From Candidatus Altarchaeum sp. (GTDB taxonomy: Archaea > Altiarchaeota > Altiarchaeia > Altiarchaeales > Altiarchaeaceae), in the NCBI GenBank assembly GCA_018260615.1, contig JAGWDQ010000015.1, forward strand, positions 1 to 14,427: a DNA stretch of 14,427 nt, written 5' to 3'. The position numbers were made by a program, and so were the translations under genes. Positions 1 through 6,877 of the stretch are shown here, piece by piece. Positions within the stretch are counted from its first letter, which is position 1. Every line of letters starts with the position of its first letter. Below the pieces are notes generated by a model that saw only the letters and a program-made list of their open reading frames with translations, did no database searches and had not been told where the DNA came from.

Positions 1-92
1 TAAAAAATCTCACAGATTTTTTAAAGATTGAAAATTCTCAAAGAATTTTCAGTATATTTCTCCTTTGTGTCCCGGTGTCTCCGTGTGAGGAT

Positions 93-276
93 AATAAAAC
101 GAACTTTCCTGTACGATAAAAAAAATCAGAAGAATACTCACACAAAGTCACAGAGCAACATTGCCCTTTGTGTCTCCGTGTCTTGGTGCGATTTTCAAAA
201 CGCGGAGTTTTTGAAAATATCCGAGCAACAGCGAGGTTAGAGAACAATAAAACGAACTTTCCTGTACGATAAAAAA
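93..276 (+). repeat. 31-bp perfect direct repeat pair (93-123 and 246-276)
   Basis: AATAAAACGAACTTTCCTGTACGATAAAAAA occurs identically at 93-123 and 246-276. Confidence 0.9.
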
Positions 277-312
277 TTTCATTTTTGATGCTGCCCTTTT
301 TTATATTTAAAA

Positions 313-450
313 TTATATTTCGGAAAGCCATATTTCCAAATTCCGTCTGTCCCTGATTTTCCTGAATAGTTCTGCCTGTCAGGTACTAAATTCCTCTTTT
401 CTCTCTTCCCAGTCCTTTTTCCACAAGGTGAAAAATTCTTTTTTATTCAT
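313..450 (-). pseudogene. Possible small ORF remnant with internal TGA
   Basis: Hand translation from ATG 450: MNKKEFFTLWKKDWEERKEEFST*QAELFRKIRDRRNLEIWLSEI*; looks like a charged helical peptide and lies in the only repeat-free stretch of 1-1001. No family recognised. Confidence 0.25.
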
Positions 451-1034
451 TTTAGAATTTAGGGAAAATTCTAAAATGTCCGAACGAAGTGAGGTCATTT
501 TAAAAACTTGTTTTTAAATACTGAAAATCTACAAGATTTTCAATCTTATTTTCAAAATCGCAATTTTAAAAACGAAGTTTTTAAAATACACGAACGAAGT
601 GAGCGTAAGATTTTGAAAATCTCCGAACGAAGCGAGGTGACAAAATGTTCCAAACATTTTGTAAATGTCCGAATGAAATGAGGTCATTTTCATATTTTAA
701 TTCCATGAATAAATTTTAAGTATTTGTTTAGCACCACAGAGGCACAGAGAAAATAATTTTATGTCTAATTTTTGTCTTTATTAGTCCTTTAAAAAACCTC
801 ACACAAAGTCACAGAGCCATTTTCAAAACGGAGAGTTTTGAAAATCTCCGAACGAAGTGAGGTGACAGAGTATATATCTTATAGTTCTTTGTGTCTTTTT
901 CAAAATCAATAGATTTTGAAAATCTCCGAGCATTTCAAACTTGTTTGAAATACACGAACGGAGTGAGCGTAAGAGCGAGGTGACTGTGTCTCCGTGTGAG
1001 GAATTACATTTTAATTATCTAAACAATTACAATT

Positions 1035-2393
1035 TTAATATGTCTTTCCGGCATAAGCAACCTTTCTCTCTTTGCCGCACACAACACATTTCTCTTCCTT
1101 TTCCTCTACCCCAAGTACACTCACATAATTTTCAATTTCATTTCTGCATTCTTCTTTTTCACATAGTCCTACAGTTATAATTCCTTTCCCCGCCAAATTT
1201 TTTACTTCGTCTATGCCCCCTGCCGTAAAAATCGCCTCATTAAATTTCTTAACTGCCATCTCTCTTAAATTTTTATCTATATCTTTAAAAATCTCCGAAA
1301 TCTTTTCCGGTGTTAATTCGTCCTTTTTTATTTTTTCTTTTTTTCTCGTATCCCTTCTGACTACAACAACTTCATTATTTTCAATGTCTCTCGGTCCCGC
1401 CTCAATTCGCAGCATCGCTCCTCTCTTTTCCCAGTAATAAAATTTCTCCCCCGGTGTTTTGTCGCTTTCATCCAGTACAACCCTGAATTGAACTAATTTT
1501 TCCTTTATCCCCCTGCAATATTTCAATACATCTTCTTTATTTCCTTTTGCGAATATCGGCACGAGCACTATTTGCGTCGGTGCAAATTTTGCAGGAAATT
1601 TTAAACCGTTTTCATCTTTATGAATGTTAAGAATGGACGCTAGCAATCTTCCGAAACTTGGCCCGTAACATGTCAAACGGACAAATTTATGGTTACCTTC
1701 TTCATCTTCATACTTTATGTTAAATGCCTCTGAAAATTTCTCACTCAGGTTGTGAATTGTCGCAATCTGTAAAATTTTGCCCTCAATGAGCGTGTCATAA
1801 GCGAGTGTGTAAGATGCTCCCGGAAATTTATCCCATTCCGGTCTGCGGTGAATTCTGTATGGAATGCAGAGGTCATTAAGCAAATCACCGTAAATTTTTC
1901 TAATCTCCTCTACATTCTTTTCGGCATCATCCAAATTTTTAAACGCAGAATGTCCTTCATTCCACAAAAATTCCCTGCCTCTTATTAATGGTCTCGTCTG
2001 CTTTGTTTCATATCTATACACTGCACAACTCTGATGAACCTTCATTGGCAAGTCCTTATGGCTTCTTATCCATAATGAAAACATCGTATAAACAGGTGTT
2101 TCCGAGGTTGGCCGCAGGGCGAGTTTTTTGTCAAGGACTTTTTTTCCTGCTTCTGTAACCCAAAAGACCTCTGTTTCAAAGCCCTTAATGTGTTCCGATT
2201 CCTTCTTTAAAATATCCTCGGGAATTAAAACAGGAAATAATACCGGCTCATGTCCTGCTTTTTCTAAATTTTCCTCTAAAATTTTCTGCATCTCTCTTAC
2301 AACAATTAACGCTGCTTTTCGGTATATTAGCATTCCCTGAACCGCATACCTGTTGTCATAAAATTCTGTTAAAATTTCATCGTCAATATCCAT
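1035..2393 (-). CDS. proS: Proline--tRNA ligase, archaeal/eukaryotic type
   Basis: LALRPTSET, YRYETKQTRPLIRGREFLWNEGH (motif 2), GPSFGRL (motif 3), anticodon domain with GEKFYYWEKRG, C-terminal 4-Cys zinc domain ending in Tyr (GKTY). Confidence 0.97.
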   Translation of the reverse strand: MDIDDEILTEFYDNRYAVQGMLIYRKAALIVVREMQKILEENLEKAGHEPVLFPVLIPEDILKKESEHIKGFETEVFWVTEAGKKVLDKKLALRPTSETPVYTMFSLWIRSHKDLPMKVHQSCAVYRYETKQTRPLIRGREFLWNEGHSAFKNLDDAEKNVEEIRKIYGDLLNDLCIPYRIHRRPEWDKFPGASYTLAYDTLIEGKILQIATIHNLSEKFSEAFNIKYEDEEGNHKFVRLTCYGPSFGRLLASILNIHKDENGLKFPAKFAPTQIVLVPIFAKGNKEDVLKYCRGIKEKLVQFRVVLDESDKTPGEKFYYWEKRGAMLRIEAGPRDIENNEVVVVRRDTRKKEKIKKDELTPEKISEIFKDIDKNLREMAVKKFNEAIFTAGGIDEVKNLAGKGIITVGLCEKEECRNEIENYVSVLGVEEKEEKCVVCGKERKVAYAGKTY

Positions 2394-2458
2394 TTTATTT
2401 TGGTTTTAAATTTTAATTTTATGAGTATATAATTAACAATACTTTCAAAAATTTTAAT
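2394..2458. promoter_or_regulatory. Divergent promoter region proS/acyP
   Basis: 65-bp very AT-rich gap between divergent starts with TATA-like runs (TTTTAAA, TATATAA); exact elements not resolved. Confidence 0.45.
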
Positions 2459-2749
2459 ATGAAAAGAGTTTGTGTGTTTGTTTCGGGAATTGTGCAGGGT
2501 GTCGGATTTAGATATTTCGTTGAGAAACATGCAAAAATGCTAAATTTAAACGGTTATGCGAGAAATATTTACGGCGGAGAAAGAGACATGCAGGTTGAGG
2601 CGGTTTTTGAAGGAGATGAAAAAAGTGTTGATGAAATGCTCGGATTGTGCCATAAAGGACATCTATTTTCGCAGGTAAAAAATGTTGAAATTATTGAAGA
2701 AGAAGAAATTTCAACGGGAAAATTTTCCGATTTTAAAATTTTGAGATAA
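2459..2749 (+). CDS. acyP: Acylphosphatase
   Basis: Signature VSGIVQGVGFRY, catalytic Asn in GYARN, VEAVFEG; 96 aa. Confidence 0.95.
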   Translation: MKRVCVFVSGIVQGVGFRYFVEKHAKMLNLNGYARNIYGGERDMQVEAVFEGDEKSVDEMLGLCHKGHLFSQVKNVEIIEEEEISTGKFSDFKILR

Positions 2750-2758
2750 TAAGTCCGT

Positions 2759-2793
2759 ATACAGGGAAATAAAAGACGAAAGTTTCCCTCTAT
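2759..2793. terminator. Hairpin between convergent acyP and DUF1616 genes (terminator-like or degenerate repeat copy)
   Basis: ATACAGGGAAA (2759-2769) pairs with TTTCCCTCTAT (2783-2793) with one mismatch. Confidence 0.4.
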
Positions 2794-2825
2794 GGAAGGA
2801 AATTTATAAAAATTTAACTCTTATT

Positions 2826-3728
2826 TTAAATTTGCACATCCATCCACAAATGCAATTTCCTGTAAATTTCATTAGTATCGTCTTTATATAGTAAAAATTC
2901 CAGCTTTTTTGTCTCTTTTGTGTCTTTGACTGTATCCTGCGTAGTGTTTTTAATATTTGCGGTAAAGGTAAAATTTTCGTTAAATGTTTCATTATCCCGC
3001 AGCCAAATATACCTCCAATACAAAATTTCATCGCTTTCATTCCATTTAATTATTAGTTTGTATTTTGTTGTCGCGTGTTCGTGGCAAACAATATTCACAT
3101 TTATGGTAAAATTTTCACCCGCAGTTAAATTTGTGGAGTACCAGTTTGCATTTCCTTCCGTATTTAAAATATAGAATTCCGTAAATTTCTCACCTTCTTT
3201 TGGAACGGAAATAACGAATATTAATGTAAATACGCAGAAAGCAACAGAAAAGAGCAATAATACAAATAGTGCTTTATCTGTCCGGTTTTCGGGAAATTTC
3301 AGACCTCCTGAAATTTTTGAATATACCTTTGAAAAAGTTAAATTTTCATTATAACCTTCTGCTTCGGGAATATTTTTTAATTTCAGGTATGTTAAAATCG
3401 TAAAGATGACTATAAATGATGACAAAATTATAACGAGCGGAATAAGACGAATTCCGAAAGGTGTGAAATTTAAAATCAGTCCCAGAACAGGAGTAATTGC
3501 AGCACTCAATCCGACACTCATGGCAATTCGTTCAATCAAATCCATATCCTTTTTTTCCGGAAAAAGAAAGGCAATTAAAACATAGCCAGGAAAGAATAAT
3601 ATCAAAGTCCATGCAAAAATTATCCTTAAAAATGTGTCATTTAATACGGGTGCAAAAATGAATATACTCGTTAAAATAGTCCAGGTTATTACTATCTTCA
3701 AATCAAAGGGAAATTTTTTGTTGTCCAT
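2826..3728 (-). CDS. DUF1616-family membrane protein
   Basis: LILFFPGYVLIAFLFP, ERIAMSVGLS, GLILNFTPFGI, EKFTEFYILN..G.A..Y, KLEFLLYK and YRKLHLW match DUF1616; several TM helices plus a C-terminal extracellular domain with N-x-S/T sequons. Confidence 0.9.
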   Translation of the reverse strand: MDNKKFPFDLKIVITWTILTSIFIFAPVLNDTFLRIIFAWTLILFFPGYVLIAFLFPEKKDMDLIERIAMSVGLSAAITPVLGLILNFTPFGIRLIPLVIILSSFIVIFTILTYLKLKNIPEAEGYNENLTFSKVYSKISGGLKFPENRTDKALFVLLLFSVAFCVFTLIFVISVPKEGEKFTEFYILNTEGNANWYSTNLTAGENFTINVNIVCHEHATTKYKLIIKWNESDEILYWRYIWLRDNETFNENFTFTANIKNTTQDTVKDTKETKKLEFLLYKDDTNEIYRKLHLWMDVQI

Positions 3729-3816
3729 GTTGTTTATAAAAAATTTATTGATAAAAATTTAATTGTTTTTAAAATATCTTTTAAAAGTATTTGTTTAAAG
3801 TATTTATTTATAAAAA
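3729..3816. promoter_or_regulatory. Divergent promoter region DUF1616 / sugar-biosynthesis operon
   Basis: 88-bp almost pure A/T gap between divergent starts with several TTTA(T/A)A boxes. Confidence 0.45.
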
Positions 3817-4905
3817 ATGATTCAAATTGCAAAACCTTTAATTGAAAAGGAAGAAGAACAAGCGGTCTTAAATGTCCTGAAATCAGGAGTAATTGCTCAG
3901 GGCCCAAAAACAGAGGAATTTGAGAGAAATTTTGCAGAGTATTGTAATGCGAAATATGCAGTTGCGGTAAATTCAGGAACTGCTGCTTTACATCTTGCTT
4001 TGATGGCAATGGATATTAAAGAAGGGGATGAAATAATAACAACACCTTTCAGTTTTATTGCATCTGCAAATTGTATTCTTTATGTCGGAGCAAAACCTGT
4101 ATTTGCAGATATTGATGAAAAGACATTTAATATTTCTCCGGAATCAATAATTGAAAAAATCACGGATAAAACAAAGGCAATAATTCCGGTTCATTTATAC
4201 GGGCAGCCATGTGATATGAAAGATATTATGAAAATAGCAGAAGACCATCACTTGCTTATTTTAGAGGATGCCTGTCAGGCACACGGTGCAGAGTATGAAA
4301 ATAAAAGGGTTGGTTCTTTTGGAGATGCGGCAGCATTTTCTTTTTATCCTACAAAAAACATGACAACAAGCGAGGGAGGAATGATAACAACAAATTCTAA
4401 AGAAATTGCGGAAAAAGCAAAAATTTTTAGAAATCACGGACAAATTAAAAGATATTATCATGAATTTTTGGGGTATAATTTGAGAATGACTGATATTTGT
4501 GCTGCAATTGGGATAGAGCAGTTAAAGAAATTGGATAAATTTACACAAAAAAGGATAGAAAATGCTCAATATTTAAGTGATAAATTAAAAAATATAAAAG
4601 GAATTGAAGTTCCGTACGTAGCAGGTAATGTAAAGCATGTTTTCCATCAATACACAATAAAAATTGAAAATGGAAAAAGAGACGAAATTAACAAAAAGCT
4701 GAATGATGCAGGAATCGGAACAGGAATTCATTATCCGATTCCGATAAATGACCAGCCATTTTACAAAAAAATGGATTATAATGCTGATGAGACACCTGCT
4801 GCAAGAGAGATGGCAAAAAATGTCTTGTCTTTGCCAATTCATCCTTCTGTAACAAGAGAAAATCTGGACTATATCGCAGAAAAATTAAGGGAAATTCTAA
4901 AATGA
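3817..4905 (+). CDS. DegT/DnrJ/EryC1/StrS family PLP aminotransferase (WbpE/WlbC-like)
   Basis: VNSGTAALHLAL, EDACQAHGA, FSFYPTKNMTTSEGG (PLP lysine), GYNLRMTD. Confidence 0.95.
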   Translation: MIQIAKPLIEKEEEQAVLNVLKSGVIAQGPKTEEFERNFAEYCNAKYAVAVNSGTAALHLALMAMDIKEGDEIITTPFSFIASANCILYVGAKPVFADIDEKTFNISPESIIEKITDKTKAIIPVHLYGQPCDMKDIMKIAEDHHLLILEDACQAHGAEYENKRVGSFGDAAAFSFYPTKNMTTSEGGMITTNSKEIAEKAKIFRNHGQIKRYYHEFLGYNLRMTDICAAIGIEQLKKLDKFTQKRIENAQYLSDKLKNIKGIEVPYVAGNVKHVFHQYTIKIENGKRDEINKKLNDAGIGTGIHYPIPINDQPFYKKMDYNADETPAAREMAKNVLSLPIHPSVTRENLDYIAEKLREILK

Positions 4906-5147
4906 CCTCACTTCGTTCGGACATTTTAGAATTCTCTGTAAATTTTAAAATGACCTCACTTCGTTCGGACATTTTAGAATTCTCTGTAAATTTTAAAATG
5001 ACCTCACTTCGTTCGGACATTTTAGAATTCTCTGTAAATTTTAAAATGACCTCACTTCGTTCGGACATTTTAGAATTCTCTGTAAATTTTAAAATGACCT
5101 CACTTCGTTCGGACATTTTAGAATTCTCTGTAAATTTTAAAATGACC
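4902..5147 (+). repeat. Perfect tandem repeat, 5 x 48 bp plus partial sixth unit
   Basis: Unit ATGACCTCACTTCGTTCGGACATTTTAGAATTCTCTGTAAATTTTAAA starts at 4902, 4950, 4998, 5046, 5094; ATGACC at 5142-5147; units identical; reverse complement closely resembles 448-505. Confidence 0.98.
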
Positions 5148-5243
5148 AACTCGCCTGAAATAAAAAAATTTATTCGTGAAAATATTTCGCTGTTTTTGGG
5201 AATCAAAGAACAGGAAAGAAATTTTAAAAAAGAAAATGAGTAA
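4902..5243 (+). CDS. Repeat-derived ORF, (MTSLRSDILEFSVNFK)x5 plus 33-aa tail; may not be translated
   Basis: ATG overlaps the aminotransferase TGA (ATGA); TAA overlaps the DUF1016 start by 8 bp. No family recognised. Confidence 0.25.
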   Translation: MTSLRSDILEFSVNFKMTSLRSDILEFSVNFKMTSLRSDILEFSVNFKMTSLRSDILEFSVNFKMTSLRSDILEFSVNFKMTNSPEIKKFIRENISLFLGIKEQERNFKKENE

Positions 5244-6282
5244 AACCAAAACACTCGCATCTCAGAATTACGACAGGATATTAGAAAATATTATAGAGCA
5301 TATTGAGCAGTCAAAATTCAGGGCATTTTCTGAAGTAAACAAAGCTCTTTTGCAGGCATATTGGAACATTGGAAAAGAACTCAATGAAAACGCGGCTTAT
5401 GGAAAATCAGTAGTAGAAAAACTTTCCATGGATTTGAGGTTAAGATACCCTGATGTGAGGGGATATTCAGAAAGAAACCTGTGGAATATGAAGCAATTTT
5501 ACGAGACCTATGAGAAACTGCAGCCAGTGGTTGCAGAATTGCTTTTCAAGATATCATGGACTAATCATGTAATTATTTTAAACAAAACCAGTTCTAACGA
5601 GGAAAAACAGTTTTATGTGGAACTATGCGTTAAAGAAAAATGGAGTAAGAGAGAACTGGACCGGCAGATTGATTCCTCTTTATTTGAGAGATACATGCTT
5701 GCTGATAAGCCGGAAAGAGTGACTGCTTTAATACCAAAACATGAATCAACAGATGTTGCCAAACACTTTAAGGACGAATATATGATGGAGTTTCTGAATA
5801 TGAAAAAGGATTACTCCGAACAGGAACTGGAAAAGGCCATTCTGGATAACCTGAGAGATTTCTTTTTGGAATTCGGCAGATCTTTCACTTTCGTCGGCTC
5901 GCAGTATGCCATTGATATAGGTGGCAGGGAAAACCGGATTGACTTGTTATTCTTTCACAGAGAACTAAAATGTTTAGTAGCAGTTGACCTAAAAATTGAT
6001 GAGTTTAAAGCAGATTATGTTGGCCAGATGCAGAAATATCTGGCTGCACTGGATGAAAAAATACGACTTCCTGATGAAAAAGAAAGTGTTGGCTTAATAC
6101 TCTGCAAATCCAAAAATCACGAAGAGGTCTGGTTTGCTCTTGCTAAATCATTATCTCCTATCAAAGTGGCAACCTATAAAACAAAACTGCCTGACAAAAA
6201 TCTCATACTCAAAAGATTGAAACAATTTCGTATTAACAATGAATCCGAAAGTAACAGGAAAGAAAAAACAAAACTAAATTAA
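5236..6282 (+). CDS. YhcG/DUF1016 family PD-(D/E)XK nuclease-domain protein
   Basis: [83 protein letters not shown]. Start placed at ATG 5236, not GTG 5176. Confidence 0.93.
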
Positions 6283-6286
6283 GAAA

Positions 6287-6877
6287 ATGATATTTATACA
6301 TCCGACAGCAGAGGTATCAGACAAAGCAAAAATCGGAGACGGAACAAAAATCTGGCATCACGCACAAATAAGAGAAAATGCAGAAATCGGAGAGAACTGC
6401 AACATTGGAAAGGGCGTTTATATTGACTTTGGCGTAAAAATCGGAAACAATTGTAAAATCCAAAATTATGTTTCGGTTTATCATGGCGTTGTTATAGAAG
6501 ATGATGTTTTTATTGGGCCATCAGTTACATTTACAAATGATTTATATCCGAGGGCTTTTATTTGGAGTGAGGAAAAAGTCAGCAAAACATTAATAAAGAA
6601 AGGTGCTTCAATAGGTGCAAATTCAACGCTCATATGCGGCATTACGATTGGAAAATTTGCGCTCATTGGTGCGGGAAGTGTCGTAACAAAAGATGTCCCG
6701 GATTATGCATTGGTCTATGGAAATCCTGCCAAAATAACCTGTTTTGTTTGTGAGTGCGGACGAAAATTAGAAAATTTTGAAGATAACAAGAAAGATAATT
6801 TGGTAAAAGGAATATGTAAATTTTGCAAAAAAGAAATTTTTATAAACAAAAACAATTTCAAAAAATGGAAAAAATAA
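6287..6877 (+). CDS. Hexapeptide-repeat N-acetyltransferase (WbpD/WlbB-like) with C-terminal Cys-pair extension
   Basis: IHPTAEV, hexapeptide repeats, [35 protein letters not shown]; CECG...CKFC at the C-terminus. Confidence 0.93.

Follow-up and report, generated by a model that had tools for sequence, protein, structure and literature searches.

In Haloquadratum walsbyi, PATEs (palindrome-associated transposable elements, among them terminal-only forms of 52 bp) and SMR-A are transposase-free repeats that produce no target duplication and enter near-terminal palindromes of other elements; they are mobile although no working IS200-type transposase is evident, and the movement of such small haloarchaeal repeats has been termed enigmatic (PMC3119063). 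For archaea, the highest MITE density reported is that of Ca. Altiarchaeum hamiconexum (PMC11602168). We analyzed a window of 14,427 nt from an Altiarchaeum genome (G000, 2.23 Mb) and found that PATE and SMR-A are the closest described elements to the module that recurs in it. They are all archaeal, tens of bases long and palindrome-based, they lack terminal inverted repeats or target duplication, and one small element preferentially enters the palindromes of another.

The recurrent feature of the window is a GA...GA motif at the core of a hairpin. All copy coordinates in a preliminary description of the window were correct on re-check, and the cores are as follows.

480-494 and 848-862, plus strand: exact 15-mer core CCGAACGAAGTGAGG
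4906-4920 to 5098-5112, minus strand: five copies of the core CCGAACGAAGTGAGG, one per array unit
669-683, plus strand: core variant AT[GAA]AT, with a compensated inner stem
955-967, plus strand: core variant AC[GGA]GT
221-236, plus strand: core variant GC[AACA]GC (CCGAGC-AACA-GCGAGG)
587-607 and 951-971, plus strand: TACA/CGTA outer stems
623-637, plus strand: core with a single A.C mismatch

In a 39-48-nt two-hairpin element without a transposase of its own, the GA...GA motif makes up the conserved 3' hairpin (H2). The other hairpin (H1), which abuts H2, has an A/T-rich stem of 6-12 bp and variable sequence, with TTT at its start and AAA at its end. The H2 consensus is T-N-T-C-C-GA-R-Y-loop-R-Y-GA-G-G-T-N'-A, predicted to fold into six Watson-Crick pairs broken by a T.T mismatch and a tandem G.A/A.G step; the loop has 3-4 nt, with a purine first and A last. 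The G.A step forms, in every copy, a symmetric 2x2 internal loop with Watson-Crick pairs on either side.

Stem covariation, which had been proposed from the window, was strong over the genomic copies of G000 and of three or four other Altiarchaeales genomes. Compensatory changes occurred at five of the six H2 pairs, and the N:N' pair showed all four Watson-Crick types. The third outer-stem pair from the core in G000 was C:G in 195 copies, A:T in 154, T:A in 15 and G:C in 11; i.e., 375 Watson-Crick pairs compared with a shuffled mean of 187. In the inner stem, one pair was A:T (262) or G:C (116) and the other C:G (343) or T:A (32), and the full 2x2 set (AC/GT, GC/GC, AT/AT and GT/AC) was seen. 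Other Altiarchaeales genomes contributed 101 hairpins, of which 59 were distinct; in this set of 101, pairing held in 87.6% of cells versus 73.0% upon shuffling, and 47 cells were changed on both sides versus 16.4; none of 500 shuffles reached the observed value of either measure. The window variants likewise mostly keep the fold: the compensatory nature of AT[GAA]AT and GC[AACA]GC and the one A.C mismatch at 623-637 were confirmed.

The GA steps had been regarded as invariant, which holds in the window but not genome-wide, where context-anchored copies kept both in 245 of 273 and in 36 of 39 cases. They are the best-conserved positions, with each of the four kept in 54-59 of the 59 distinct sequences from other species, and their replacement by Watson-Crick pairs was never seen. 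The Y-GA-R context was kept in all subfamilies; the pair inside the GA step was only A:T or G:C and the pair outside only C:G. The GNA triloop proved to describe about half of the family: 176 of the 200 copies of the main subfamily had it, and the 107-copy GC/GC subfamily had 4-nt loops, AACA, AAGA and AGGA among others.

The core CCGAACGAAGTGAGG was present in 84 exact copies in G000, compared with approximately 0.004 expected, and the wider repeat family comprised approximately 400 copies. A reversed-pattern control gave no match across four Altiarchaeum genomes. Core copies numbered 113, 25, 67 and 19 in the four Altiarchaeum species, and the core was essentially absent from 57 other Altiarchaeota genomes. 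The wider pattern gave 79, 173 and 64 copies in three sister species and approximately four true copies in one genome of another family; apart from these few copies, the repeat is confined to one genus. A single match in a viral contig lay in a coding region of 48% GC and was judged to be chance, and a 'Methanoperedens' match was a mis-binned Altiarchaeum contig, 97% identical to contig C98 of G000. Copies in G000 were 88% intergenic, compared with 17% of the DNA. In addition, 45 of 148 contigs ended within 300 nt of a repeat copy; the repeats thus fragment Altiarchaeum assemblies.

The module is mobile DNA and inserts as a discrete unit. Pairs of filled and empty sites gave approximately 13 distinct junctions in unrelated host repeats. 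A 48-nt module lies in frame in the tnpB copies of contigs C42 and C26, whereas five other tnpB copies have no module, and the repeat content of orthologous intergenic regions differs between species. No consistent target duplication was found at the filled/empty junctions, where overlaps were -1 to 2 nt in most cases and larger ones were due to the T-run at the start of H1. At 11 of the 13 distinct junctions, an A stood directly 5' of the element, often as CA or GA, and no longer motif was common to them. In-frame modules add 16-residue inserts to proteins. The two-hairpin modules of the window, several of them nested, are as follows.

191-239, plus strand: module; H1 at 191-218 (A/T stem), abutting H2 at 218-239 (core 221-236)
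449-497, plus strand: module; H1 at 449-477, H2 at 477-497 (core 480-494)
548-640, plus strand: composite; host H1 arms at 548-562 and 608-619, host H2 at 620-640 (core 623-637)
563-607, plus strand: inner module of the 548-640 composite, interrupting the host H1 loop (core 591-603, TACA/CGTA outer stem)
638-686, plus strand: module; H1 at 641-664, H2 at 666-686 (core 669-683)
819-865, plus strand: module; H1 at 819-845, H2 at 845-865 (core 848-862)
896-983, plus strand: composite; host H1 at 896-922, split H2 with TCT CCGAGC at 923-931 and GCGAGG TGA at 975-983
933-971, plus strand: 39-nt inner module of the 896-983 composite, in the AAGA loop of the host H2 (core 955-967)

The module at 191-239 sits inside a 159-bp repeat (119-277), copies of which on C113, C36, C59, C135 and C24 lack these 47-48 nt, and the module at 819-865 has an empty site in a paralogous repeat on C60. 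The module at 449-497 carries G:C at the covarying outer-stem pair. An H1 loop insertion like that in the 548-640 composite has an empty counterpart elsewhere (C70:8983 versus C96). The composite type at 896-983 was seen in 10 copies, and its empty host form, with an AGGA loop, is on C107.

Loops of existing H1 and H2 hairpins were strongly preferred as targets. Approximately 45 insertions were found in H2 loops, at GA^A, A^ACA or A^AGA; because nested copies are often amplified composites, the independent loop insertions may number approximately 10 rather than 45. Insertions sitting directly in a host loop all shared the orientation of the host hairpin, and this same-orientation landing leads to nested composites and side-by-side copies; neighbors less than 60 nt apart were direct in 66 cases and inverted in 2. 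A second element, of 57-61 nt, also enters the H2 loop and does so in a single orientation throughout. That nested insertions keep a fixed orientation is an argument for a process that tells one strand from the other.

We consider it probable (roughly 0.7) that the motif belongs, as the conserved H2, to a tiny non-autonomous mobile element of Altiarchaeum and is kept for recognition as a folded single strand by an enzyme acting in trans. Selection would keep H2 because the trans-acting enzyme must recognize the folded single strand during mobilization, the substrate of which would be ssDNA. The non-Watson-Crick positions, which are G.A/A.G and T.T in one strand and C.T/T.C and A.A in its complement, may let the enzyme tell the strands apart; imperfections serve strand discrimination in IS200/IS605 ends, REPs and attC sites. 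That ssDNA rather than RNA might be the acting form, with the GA strand alone mattering, is a suggestion drawn from textbook G.A and GNA chemistry.

Recognition of the GA strand in particular, as proposed in the preliminary description, drew no support from these data: the copies were unbiased by strand, and neither folding energies nor wobbles singled out the GA strand. The orientation of copies alternates within contigs, which IS200/IS605-type insertion into the lagging-strand template does not predict, though the contigs are short and their replication direction is unknown. Short H2 hairpins had nearest-neighbor DNA energies of 0 to -1 kcal/mol with the two strands equal, energies that are uninformative because the model credits neither sheared G.A pairs nor GNA loops. 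An A.C mismatch on one strand is a wobble on the opposite strand. Among single-defect copies, A.C outnumbered G.T by 68 to 11; however, 47 of the A.C cases came from one subfamily, without which the counts were 14 and 11, and therefore no call was made from wobble pairs.

The mobilizing enzyme may be either missing from the draft genomes or of a family not yet linked to transposition. A search for HUH/Y1, GIY-YIG or tyrosine recombinase genes flanked by the motif, which the preliminary description had suggested, found none. The Y1 HUH transposase (PF01797) was absent from the four Altiarchaeum genomes, all of which are drafts (65-87% complete), whereas control genomes matched. Rep_trans had no match in five genomes searched; Y2_Tnp had none in five genomes but also none in 14 control genomes, so that this negative carries no weight. 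G000 has no GIY-YIG gene, its sole tyrosine recombinase (PF00589) lies 6 kb from the nearest repeat copy, and its one IS110 copy, on C73, has no hairpin near it. No gene family was consistently flanked by the motif, and the 12 genes bracketed on both sides were housekeeping or unnamed. Bracketed or multi-copy families (archaeal ATPases, TPR, Schlafen/AlbA_2, Bro-N, RhuM and ABC transporters) were not enriched beside copies. TnpB was rejected as a partner, the adjacency on C42 being a module within the tnpB gene; six resident TnpB-only elements end in a 15-bp inverted repeat, GAGTGATTTCGCTTT / AAAGCGAAATCACTC, and have no H1 or H2 at these ends. Split hairpins, their halves separated by as much as 6 kb, were searched for an autonomous element in between and yielded only nested repeats no longer than 240 nt or chance matches in genes. 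The earlier interpretation thus stands as to a dispersed, mobile, REP-like archaeal repeat whose hairpin is kept by compensatory change, but not as to ssDNA recognized by an HUH-type enzyme.

A more specific possibility, which we consider less probable, is that an ssDNA transposition system with an enzyme other than HUH Y1/Y2 uses H2 both for recognition and as its favored point of integration. The G.A and T.T positions would then be a strand-selection code, and self-targeting of loops would make 'hairpin farms' grow by nested and tandem addition. The enzyme could be of an unrecognized Altiarchaeum family or could be supplied by an unbinned plasmid or virus. The orientation of copies alternates within contigs, which IS200/IS605-type insertion into the lagging-strand template does not predict, though the contigs are short and their replication direction is unknown.

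It is improbable that H2 acts as RNA; i.e., as a protein-binding or regulatory hairpin that has spread over the genome and serves transcript stabilization, processing or termination. Proteins commonly bind tandem G.A motifs in archaeal RNA, and RNA parameters, which credit tandem GA, favor the GA strand by 2.5-3.4 kcal/mol, in long-stem copies only. Some 4-nt loops are GNRA-like (e.g., GTAA), and convergent spacers, where 3' ends meet, hold copies at a somewhat higher density (1.16 per kb) than tandem (0.86) or divergent (0.59) spacers. However, orientation relative to co-directional flanking genes was random (90 versus 87), and these spacer densities together with the absence of an orientation preference are a selfish-DNA distribution. 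Restriction to one genus, variation at orthologous loci and in-frame copies inside coding genes also speak against an RNA function. No Rfam family matched the motif. K-turns and K-loops are defined by a 3-nt bulge, which makes their loop asymmetric; the symmetric 2x2 G.A loop of H2 has none.

The five minus-strand cores belong to a tandem array beside a nuclease gene.

4903-5147, minus strand: tandem array of 5.3 units of the 48-nt module (period 48, 99% matches)
5176-6282, plus strand: YhcG/DUF1016 PDDEXK nuclease gene

The outer stem of the first array unit overlaps the last codons and stop of a DegT-type aminotransferase gene. The orthologous locus has one unit in G003 and none in G001, and a paralogous operon on C89 of G000 has no array unit. 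A lone unit can be amplified in place into a 47-48-bp tandem array; the 4903-5147 array is of this kind, and a sister species carries its unit only once. The array and the YhcG gene were co-inserted between the aminotransferase gene and a hexapeptide acetyltransferase gene as a 1.39-kb insertion with AAAATGA at both ends (4899-4905 and 6284-6290).

We weighed whether the modules are attC-like cassette recombination sites, with the array and YhcG gene as a cassette captured by a tyrosine recombinase. The module stands exactly at the left edge of this single-gene insertion, and attC sites are likewise folded single strands whose imperfections set strand choice. We nevertheless consider this quite improbable: of the approximately 400 copies, most stand alone, are nested or form tandems with no intervening gene, the genes bracketed by copies have ordinary housekeeping functions, and the lone tyrosine recombinase has no copy in its vicinity. 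A copy lies near only two of five YhcG genes, and the C98 module is inside, rather than at the edge of, the duplicated segment around a cassette. YhcG/DUF1016 was also rejected as the partner of the repeat; the gene occurs in six other Altiarchaeota genomes, five of which were scanned and had no true repeat copy.

Least probable of all is that a host protein (nucleoid, topoisomerase or regulator) binds H2 as duplex or cruciform and that the repeats are kept for chromosome organization, as proposed for some bacterial REP/BIME elements. High copy number, intergenic position and partial dyad symmetry would suit this reading. However, a reader of duplex sequence would not tolerate four different base pairs at a single position with matched changes in the other arm, presence varies at the same loci between sister species, and copies interrupt one another.

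Altiarchaeum, a groundwater archaeon, forms nearly pure biofilms. Its repeat family is a clean substrate for asking how transposase-free small repeats move: the element is only two hairpins long, filled and empty sites are clear, and the preferred target, its own loop, is defined. The H2 signature is unusually explicit: it combines tandem G.A pairs set in Y-GA-R context with a T.T mismatch and a loop of R..A form.

Classical MITEs and Rickettsia RPE-type repeats are similarly non-autonomous and mostly intergenic, with occasional in-frame copies in genes, which are tolerated here because a unit of 48 nt is 16 codons; unlike classical MITEs, whose terminal inverted repeats match a DDE transposon, the Altiarchaeum element ends in two unlike hairpins, without terminal inverted repeats or a consistent target duplication. 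In integron attC sites, too, the non-paired bases of a folded single strand, rather than its sequence, are conserved and set strand choice, but the modules are not cassette-spaced, lack R and L boxes and have no associated integrase. Ends of IS200/IS605 elements (IS608 and ISDra2) share subterminal, imperfect hairpins on one strand, absence of terminal inverted repeats and target duplication, insertion by a short sequence and strand-specific behavior. In contrast to them, the two hairpins of the module are unlike each other, the target is little beyond A, and there is neither a TnpA nor a long-range orientation bias. Cleavage inside hairpin loops is not the geometry of IS608.

REPs and REPINs of Proteobacteria are also short imperfect hairpins in hundreds of extragenic copies and clusters, with lineage-specific sequence and conserved structure (PMC3116915). 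The Altiarchaeum repeat differs in having no RAYT/Y1 gene, no gene flanked by inverted copies and no GTAG-type 5' tetranucleotide, and REPINs are inverted doublets, whereas close neighbors here are direct. Compared with PATEs, whose palindromes match resident IS605-type ends, the Altiarchaeum TnpB-element ends are unrelated to H1 and H2, and the derivation that defines PATEs therefore fails. Both PATEs and the module have palindromes near the two ends. PATEs insert 3' of a fixed 4-6-nt targeting sequence; the module lies 3' of an A at 11 of its 13 distinct junctions. SMR-A elements measure approximately 110 bp and have prominent inverted terminal repeats. Two features set the Altiarchaeum module apart from both PATE and SMR-A: a single hairpin that is strongly conserved and carries tandem G.A and T.T mismatches, and the targeting of its own hairpin loops.

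The repeat in the window is the conserved half of a mobile module of 39-48 nt. Position-specific counts and clean insertions define the module as a pair of directly adjoining hairpins. The first, H1, is an A/T-rich palindrome of variable sequence with TTT at its start and AAA at its end; H2, the conserved hairpin with the GA...GA motif, lies directly 3' of H1, its last base being the A of T-N'-A, where N:N' is a freely covarying outer pair. Every motif coordinate in the preliminary description was correct when we re-checked the window, which carries copies at two main places.

Window 1-1034: gene-free repeat field downstream of the prolyl-tRNA synthetase gene.
Window 4892-5147: 48-bp array with a DegT-type aminotransferase gene on one side and a YhcG/DUF1016 nuclease gene on the other.
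H2 hairpin, GA steps and T.T mismatch included: TCTCCGAACGAAGTGAGGTGA.

The source genome (G000) is a draft of 2.23 Mb in 148 contigs, with 33% GC and 87% completeness; the window is contig C15 (14.4 kb) in full. The core of H2, CCGAACGAAGTGAGG, has 84 exact copies there, compared with approximately 0.004 expected, and 215 when as many as two mismatches are allowed. With CGA..GAG as the sole search anchor, four real subfamilies stood out from approximately 1000 chance matches.

Copies of the H2 subfamilies in the source genome, named by inner stem and loop:
AC/GT, 3-nt loop: 200
GC/GC, 4-nt loop: 107
AC/GT, 4-nt loop: 35
AT/AT: 29

The family totals approximately 400 copies. Because 45 of the 148 contigs have an end no more than 300 nt from an H2 copy, the repeats are a main cause of assembly breaks, and these copy numbers are therefore lower bounds. 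Exact motif matches in public genomes all came from Candidatus Altiarchaeum or Altiarchaeales assemblies, bar one "Methanoperedens" contig that shares 97% identity with C98, a contig of the source genome, and is evidently mis-binned. On C98, a flavoprotein-like gene has a module close to its 3' end that is translated in frame (also locus L029). The final 247 nt of the gene, module included, form direct repeats (25906-26152 and 27144-27390) flanking a segment of approximately 1 kb with two small ORFs; the "Methanoperedens" MAG has this segment too, as a 1306-bp contig whose ends match. Approximately four true H2 copies (e.g., CCGAACGAAGTGAGGTTA and CCGAATGAAATGAGGTTA) were found in G052, a genome of another Altiarchaeota family, whereas the genus Altiarchaeum has hundreds; this suggests either ancient common descent of the element followed by loss, or its horizontal transfer.

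Mobility is seen directly in tnpB, where two copies carry a 48-nt module in frame and five others, nearly identical apart from it, lack it; the product is 427 aa long with the module and 409-414 aa in the five sister copies.

C42:5506-5553 (locus L048) and C26:12275-12322: module of 16 codons in the C-terminal part of tnpB.

Downstream of the insertion, the sequences of the two filled copies fall into different subtypes, suggesting that IS copies have recombined. In total, approximately 13 distinct filled/empty junctions were found in unrelated host repeats, including those of window modules 191-239 and 819-865. Junction overlaps were mostly -1 to 2 nt, and the T-run that opens H1 accounts for the few larger values; thus, there is no target duplication. 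An A precedes the module at 11 of the 13 junctions, often as CA or GA. Further repeat families of the window, unrelated to H2 and present in 10-30 copies at 85-100% identity, act as hosts for module insertions.

Window 1-123, 119-277 and 711-1040: non-H2 repeat families, among them a 159-bp unit ending ...AATAAAACGAACTTTCCTGTACGATAAAAAA and units containing CACAAAGTCACAGAG or CTTTGTGTCTCCGTGTGAGG.

H2 itself is a target. Looking for split H2 hairpins, we located approximately 45 modules inside H2 loops, at GA^A, A^ACA or A^AGA, nested to two or three levels in some cases; many are amplified composites, and from the differing H1 sequences and host types we estimate about ten independent events. 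All insertions directly in a host loop share the orientation of the host. H2 loops are also occupied, in a single orientation throughout, by another element, unrelated to the module and 57-61 nt long with two A/T hairpins; a few copies of it lie outside H2 (C100:31039).

C13:12490-12570, C117:264-440 and C70:9046-9180: examples of this second element, imperfect ends ATATCAAAAAT...ATTTTTGCGAYA.

Among neighbours separated by less than 60 nt, 66 pairs were direct and 2 inverted. The constancy of this relative orientation is the strongest evidence that the process tells the two strands apart. At longer range, orientation was random (28 versus 27 at 0.5-3 kb) and alternated within contigs, and it was unrelated to the direction of flanking genes (90 versus 87). 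H2 copies were 88% intergenic, with twice the density in convergent as in divergent spacers, the usual pattern when selfish insertions are purged from promoters.

Orthologous loci were then compared among the source genome and three sister Altiarchaeum genomes (G001-G003). Downstream of the prolyl-tRNA synthetase gene, the repeats differ among G000, G001 and G002, and the spacer of G003 is almost empty. The aminotransferase/acetyltransferase junction is unbroken in G001 (C50) and in the paralogous operon on C89 of the source genome; it holds one module and a decayed YhcG gene in G003 (C29), and 5.3 modules and an intact YhcG gene in the window. The 48-bp array therefore arose from one unit by local amplification. 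Together, array and YhcG gene form a 1.39-kb insertion (window 4899-6290) with AAAATGA at both ends, which splits an otherwise overlapping aminotransferase/acetyltransferase gene pair. The whole sugar operon is duplicated at C89:1-2588, 84-88% identical and without the insertion.

The compensatory covariation proposed for the stem was borne out both within the source genome and in other Altiarchaeales genomes. Outward from the core, the stem consists of C:G, a conserved T.T mismatch, the freely covarying pair (C:G 195, A:T 154, T:A 15 and G:C 11 in G000) and T:A; in TACA/CGTA, the other form of the outer stem, A.C replaces T.T. A fourth inner-stem combination, GT/AC, was found in one sister species, so that all four compensated inner stems of the 2x2 set are represented. 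Watson-Crick pairing at every H2 pair in the source genome was far above the column-shuffled expectation, and these counts, anchored only on the GA steps, are free of model-fitting bias. A covariance model built from ten copies and run on loci of other Altiarchaeales genomes found 101 hairpins, 59 of them distinct, with 87.6% pairing against 73.0 +/- 1.4% in shuffles and 47 cells altered on both sides against 16.4, in an alignment that leans towards structure as it was fitted to the model. None of 500 shuffles matched the observed pairing or double-change value, slid-partner controls were far lower, and five of the six pairs carried compensatory changes.

We assessed the GA steps using the flanking stems as anchors and leaving the GA positions free. 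GA/GA was kept in 245 of 273 and 36 of 39 copies; the steps are the most conserved feature and, although invariant in the window, not fully so across the genome. Each copy without GA/GA had a single purine change, and none had turned into a Watson-Crick pair. In the other species, the four GA positions were kept in 54-59 of the 59 distinct sequences, above any stem position. The pairs flanking the GA steps varied only as A:T/G:C and C:G, compared with all four orientations for the outer pair; therefore, the proposed 5'-Y-GA-R-3' context is always kept. Established work on sheared tandem G.A pairs would call for this context. The GNA triloop applied to 176 of the 200 copies of the main subfamily and did not extend to the GC/GC subfamily, which has loops such as AACA, AAGA and AGGA; the general rule is that the loop opens with a purine and closes with an A.

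Nearest-neighbour energies were uninformative: modelled as DNA, short H2 hairpins scored approximately 0 kcal/mol on either strand, and RNA parameters favoured the GA strand by 2.5-3.4 kcal/mol in long-stem copies only. Stem covariation is symmetric and thus carries no information on strand, or on DNA versus RNA, and no Rfam family matched H2. Single-defect copies had A.C 68 times and G.T 11 times, A.C being a wobble on the complementary strand; the TACA/CGTA subfamily supplied 47 of the A.C cases, and without that subfamily the count was 14 versus 11. The orientation and wobble analyses weaken the claim that only the GA strand is recognized. From G.A/GNA chemistry and by analogy, we infer that the folded molecule may be single-stranded DNA.

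The preliminary description had suggested looking for HUH/Y1, GIY-YIG or tyrosine recombinase genes flanked by the motif, and none was found. PF01797 (Y1 HUH) had no match in the four Altiarchaeum genomes and matched in control genomes; Rep_trans was not found in five genomes, GIY-YIG was not found in the source genome, and Y2_Tnp matched neither the five genomes nor the controls and is hence uninformative. The sole tyrosine recombinase lies 6 kb from the nearest H2 copy, and the single IS110-type transposase gene (C73:28-1300) has no copy nearby. It lies at a contig edge, where it is followed by tandem AAAGCAAAAGTA repeats and a gap in the assembly. There are nine TnpB-like genes, six of which belong to one IS; no TnpA was detectable in the source genome or its three sisters.

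C13, C24, C42, C69, C70 and C119 (loci L033-L038): six near-identical TnpB-only ISs with a perfect 15-bp inverted repeat, GAGTGATTTCGCTTT.

We rejected this IS as the source, as its ends are unrelated to H1 and H2. YhcG was rejected as a partner: an H2 copy lies near only two of the five YhcG genes, and the family is present in six other Altiarchaeota genomes, of which the five scanned held no true repeat copy. Nothing unusual was seen among genes with a copy on each side or among families of multi-copy genes. Neither a gene-carrying version within a split hairpin nor a viral carrier of the repeat was found. Since all four genomes are drafts and the repeats break assembly, the missing enzyme is not proven absent.

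The module works like REP/RAYT, PATE, MITE and attC elements and is a member of none, each failing on a defining feature. The proposed REP-like character holds for how it works; however, it has no RAYT, and its copies are direct rather than inverted doublets. Unlike MITEs, it lacks terminal inverted repeats and target duplication; unlike attC sites, it has neither cassettes nor an associated integrase; and H2 lacks the 3-nt bulge of a K-turn. Candidatus Altiarchaeum hamiconexum is reported to have the highest MITE density among archaea, in work that does not describe the H2 family (PMC11602168). The nearest described system is that of Haloquadratum walsbyi, whose PATEs (down to 52 bp) and SMR-A repeats are mobile without an evident transposase and without target duplication, SMR-A elements inserting into PATE palindromes (PMC3119063); the ends of the Altiarchaeum module, unlike those of PATEs, are unrelated to resident IS605-type elements.
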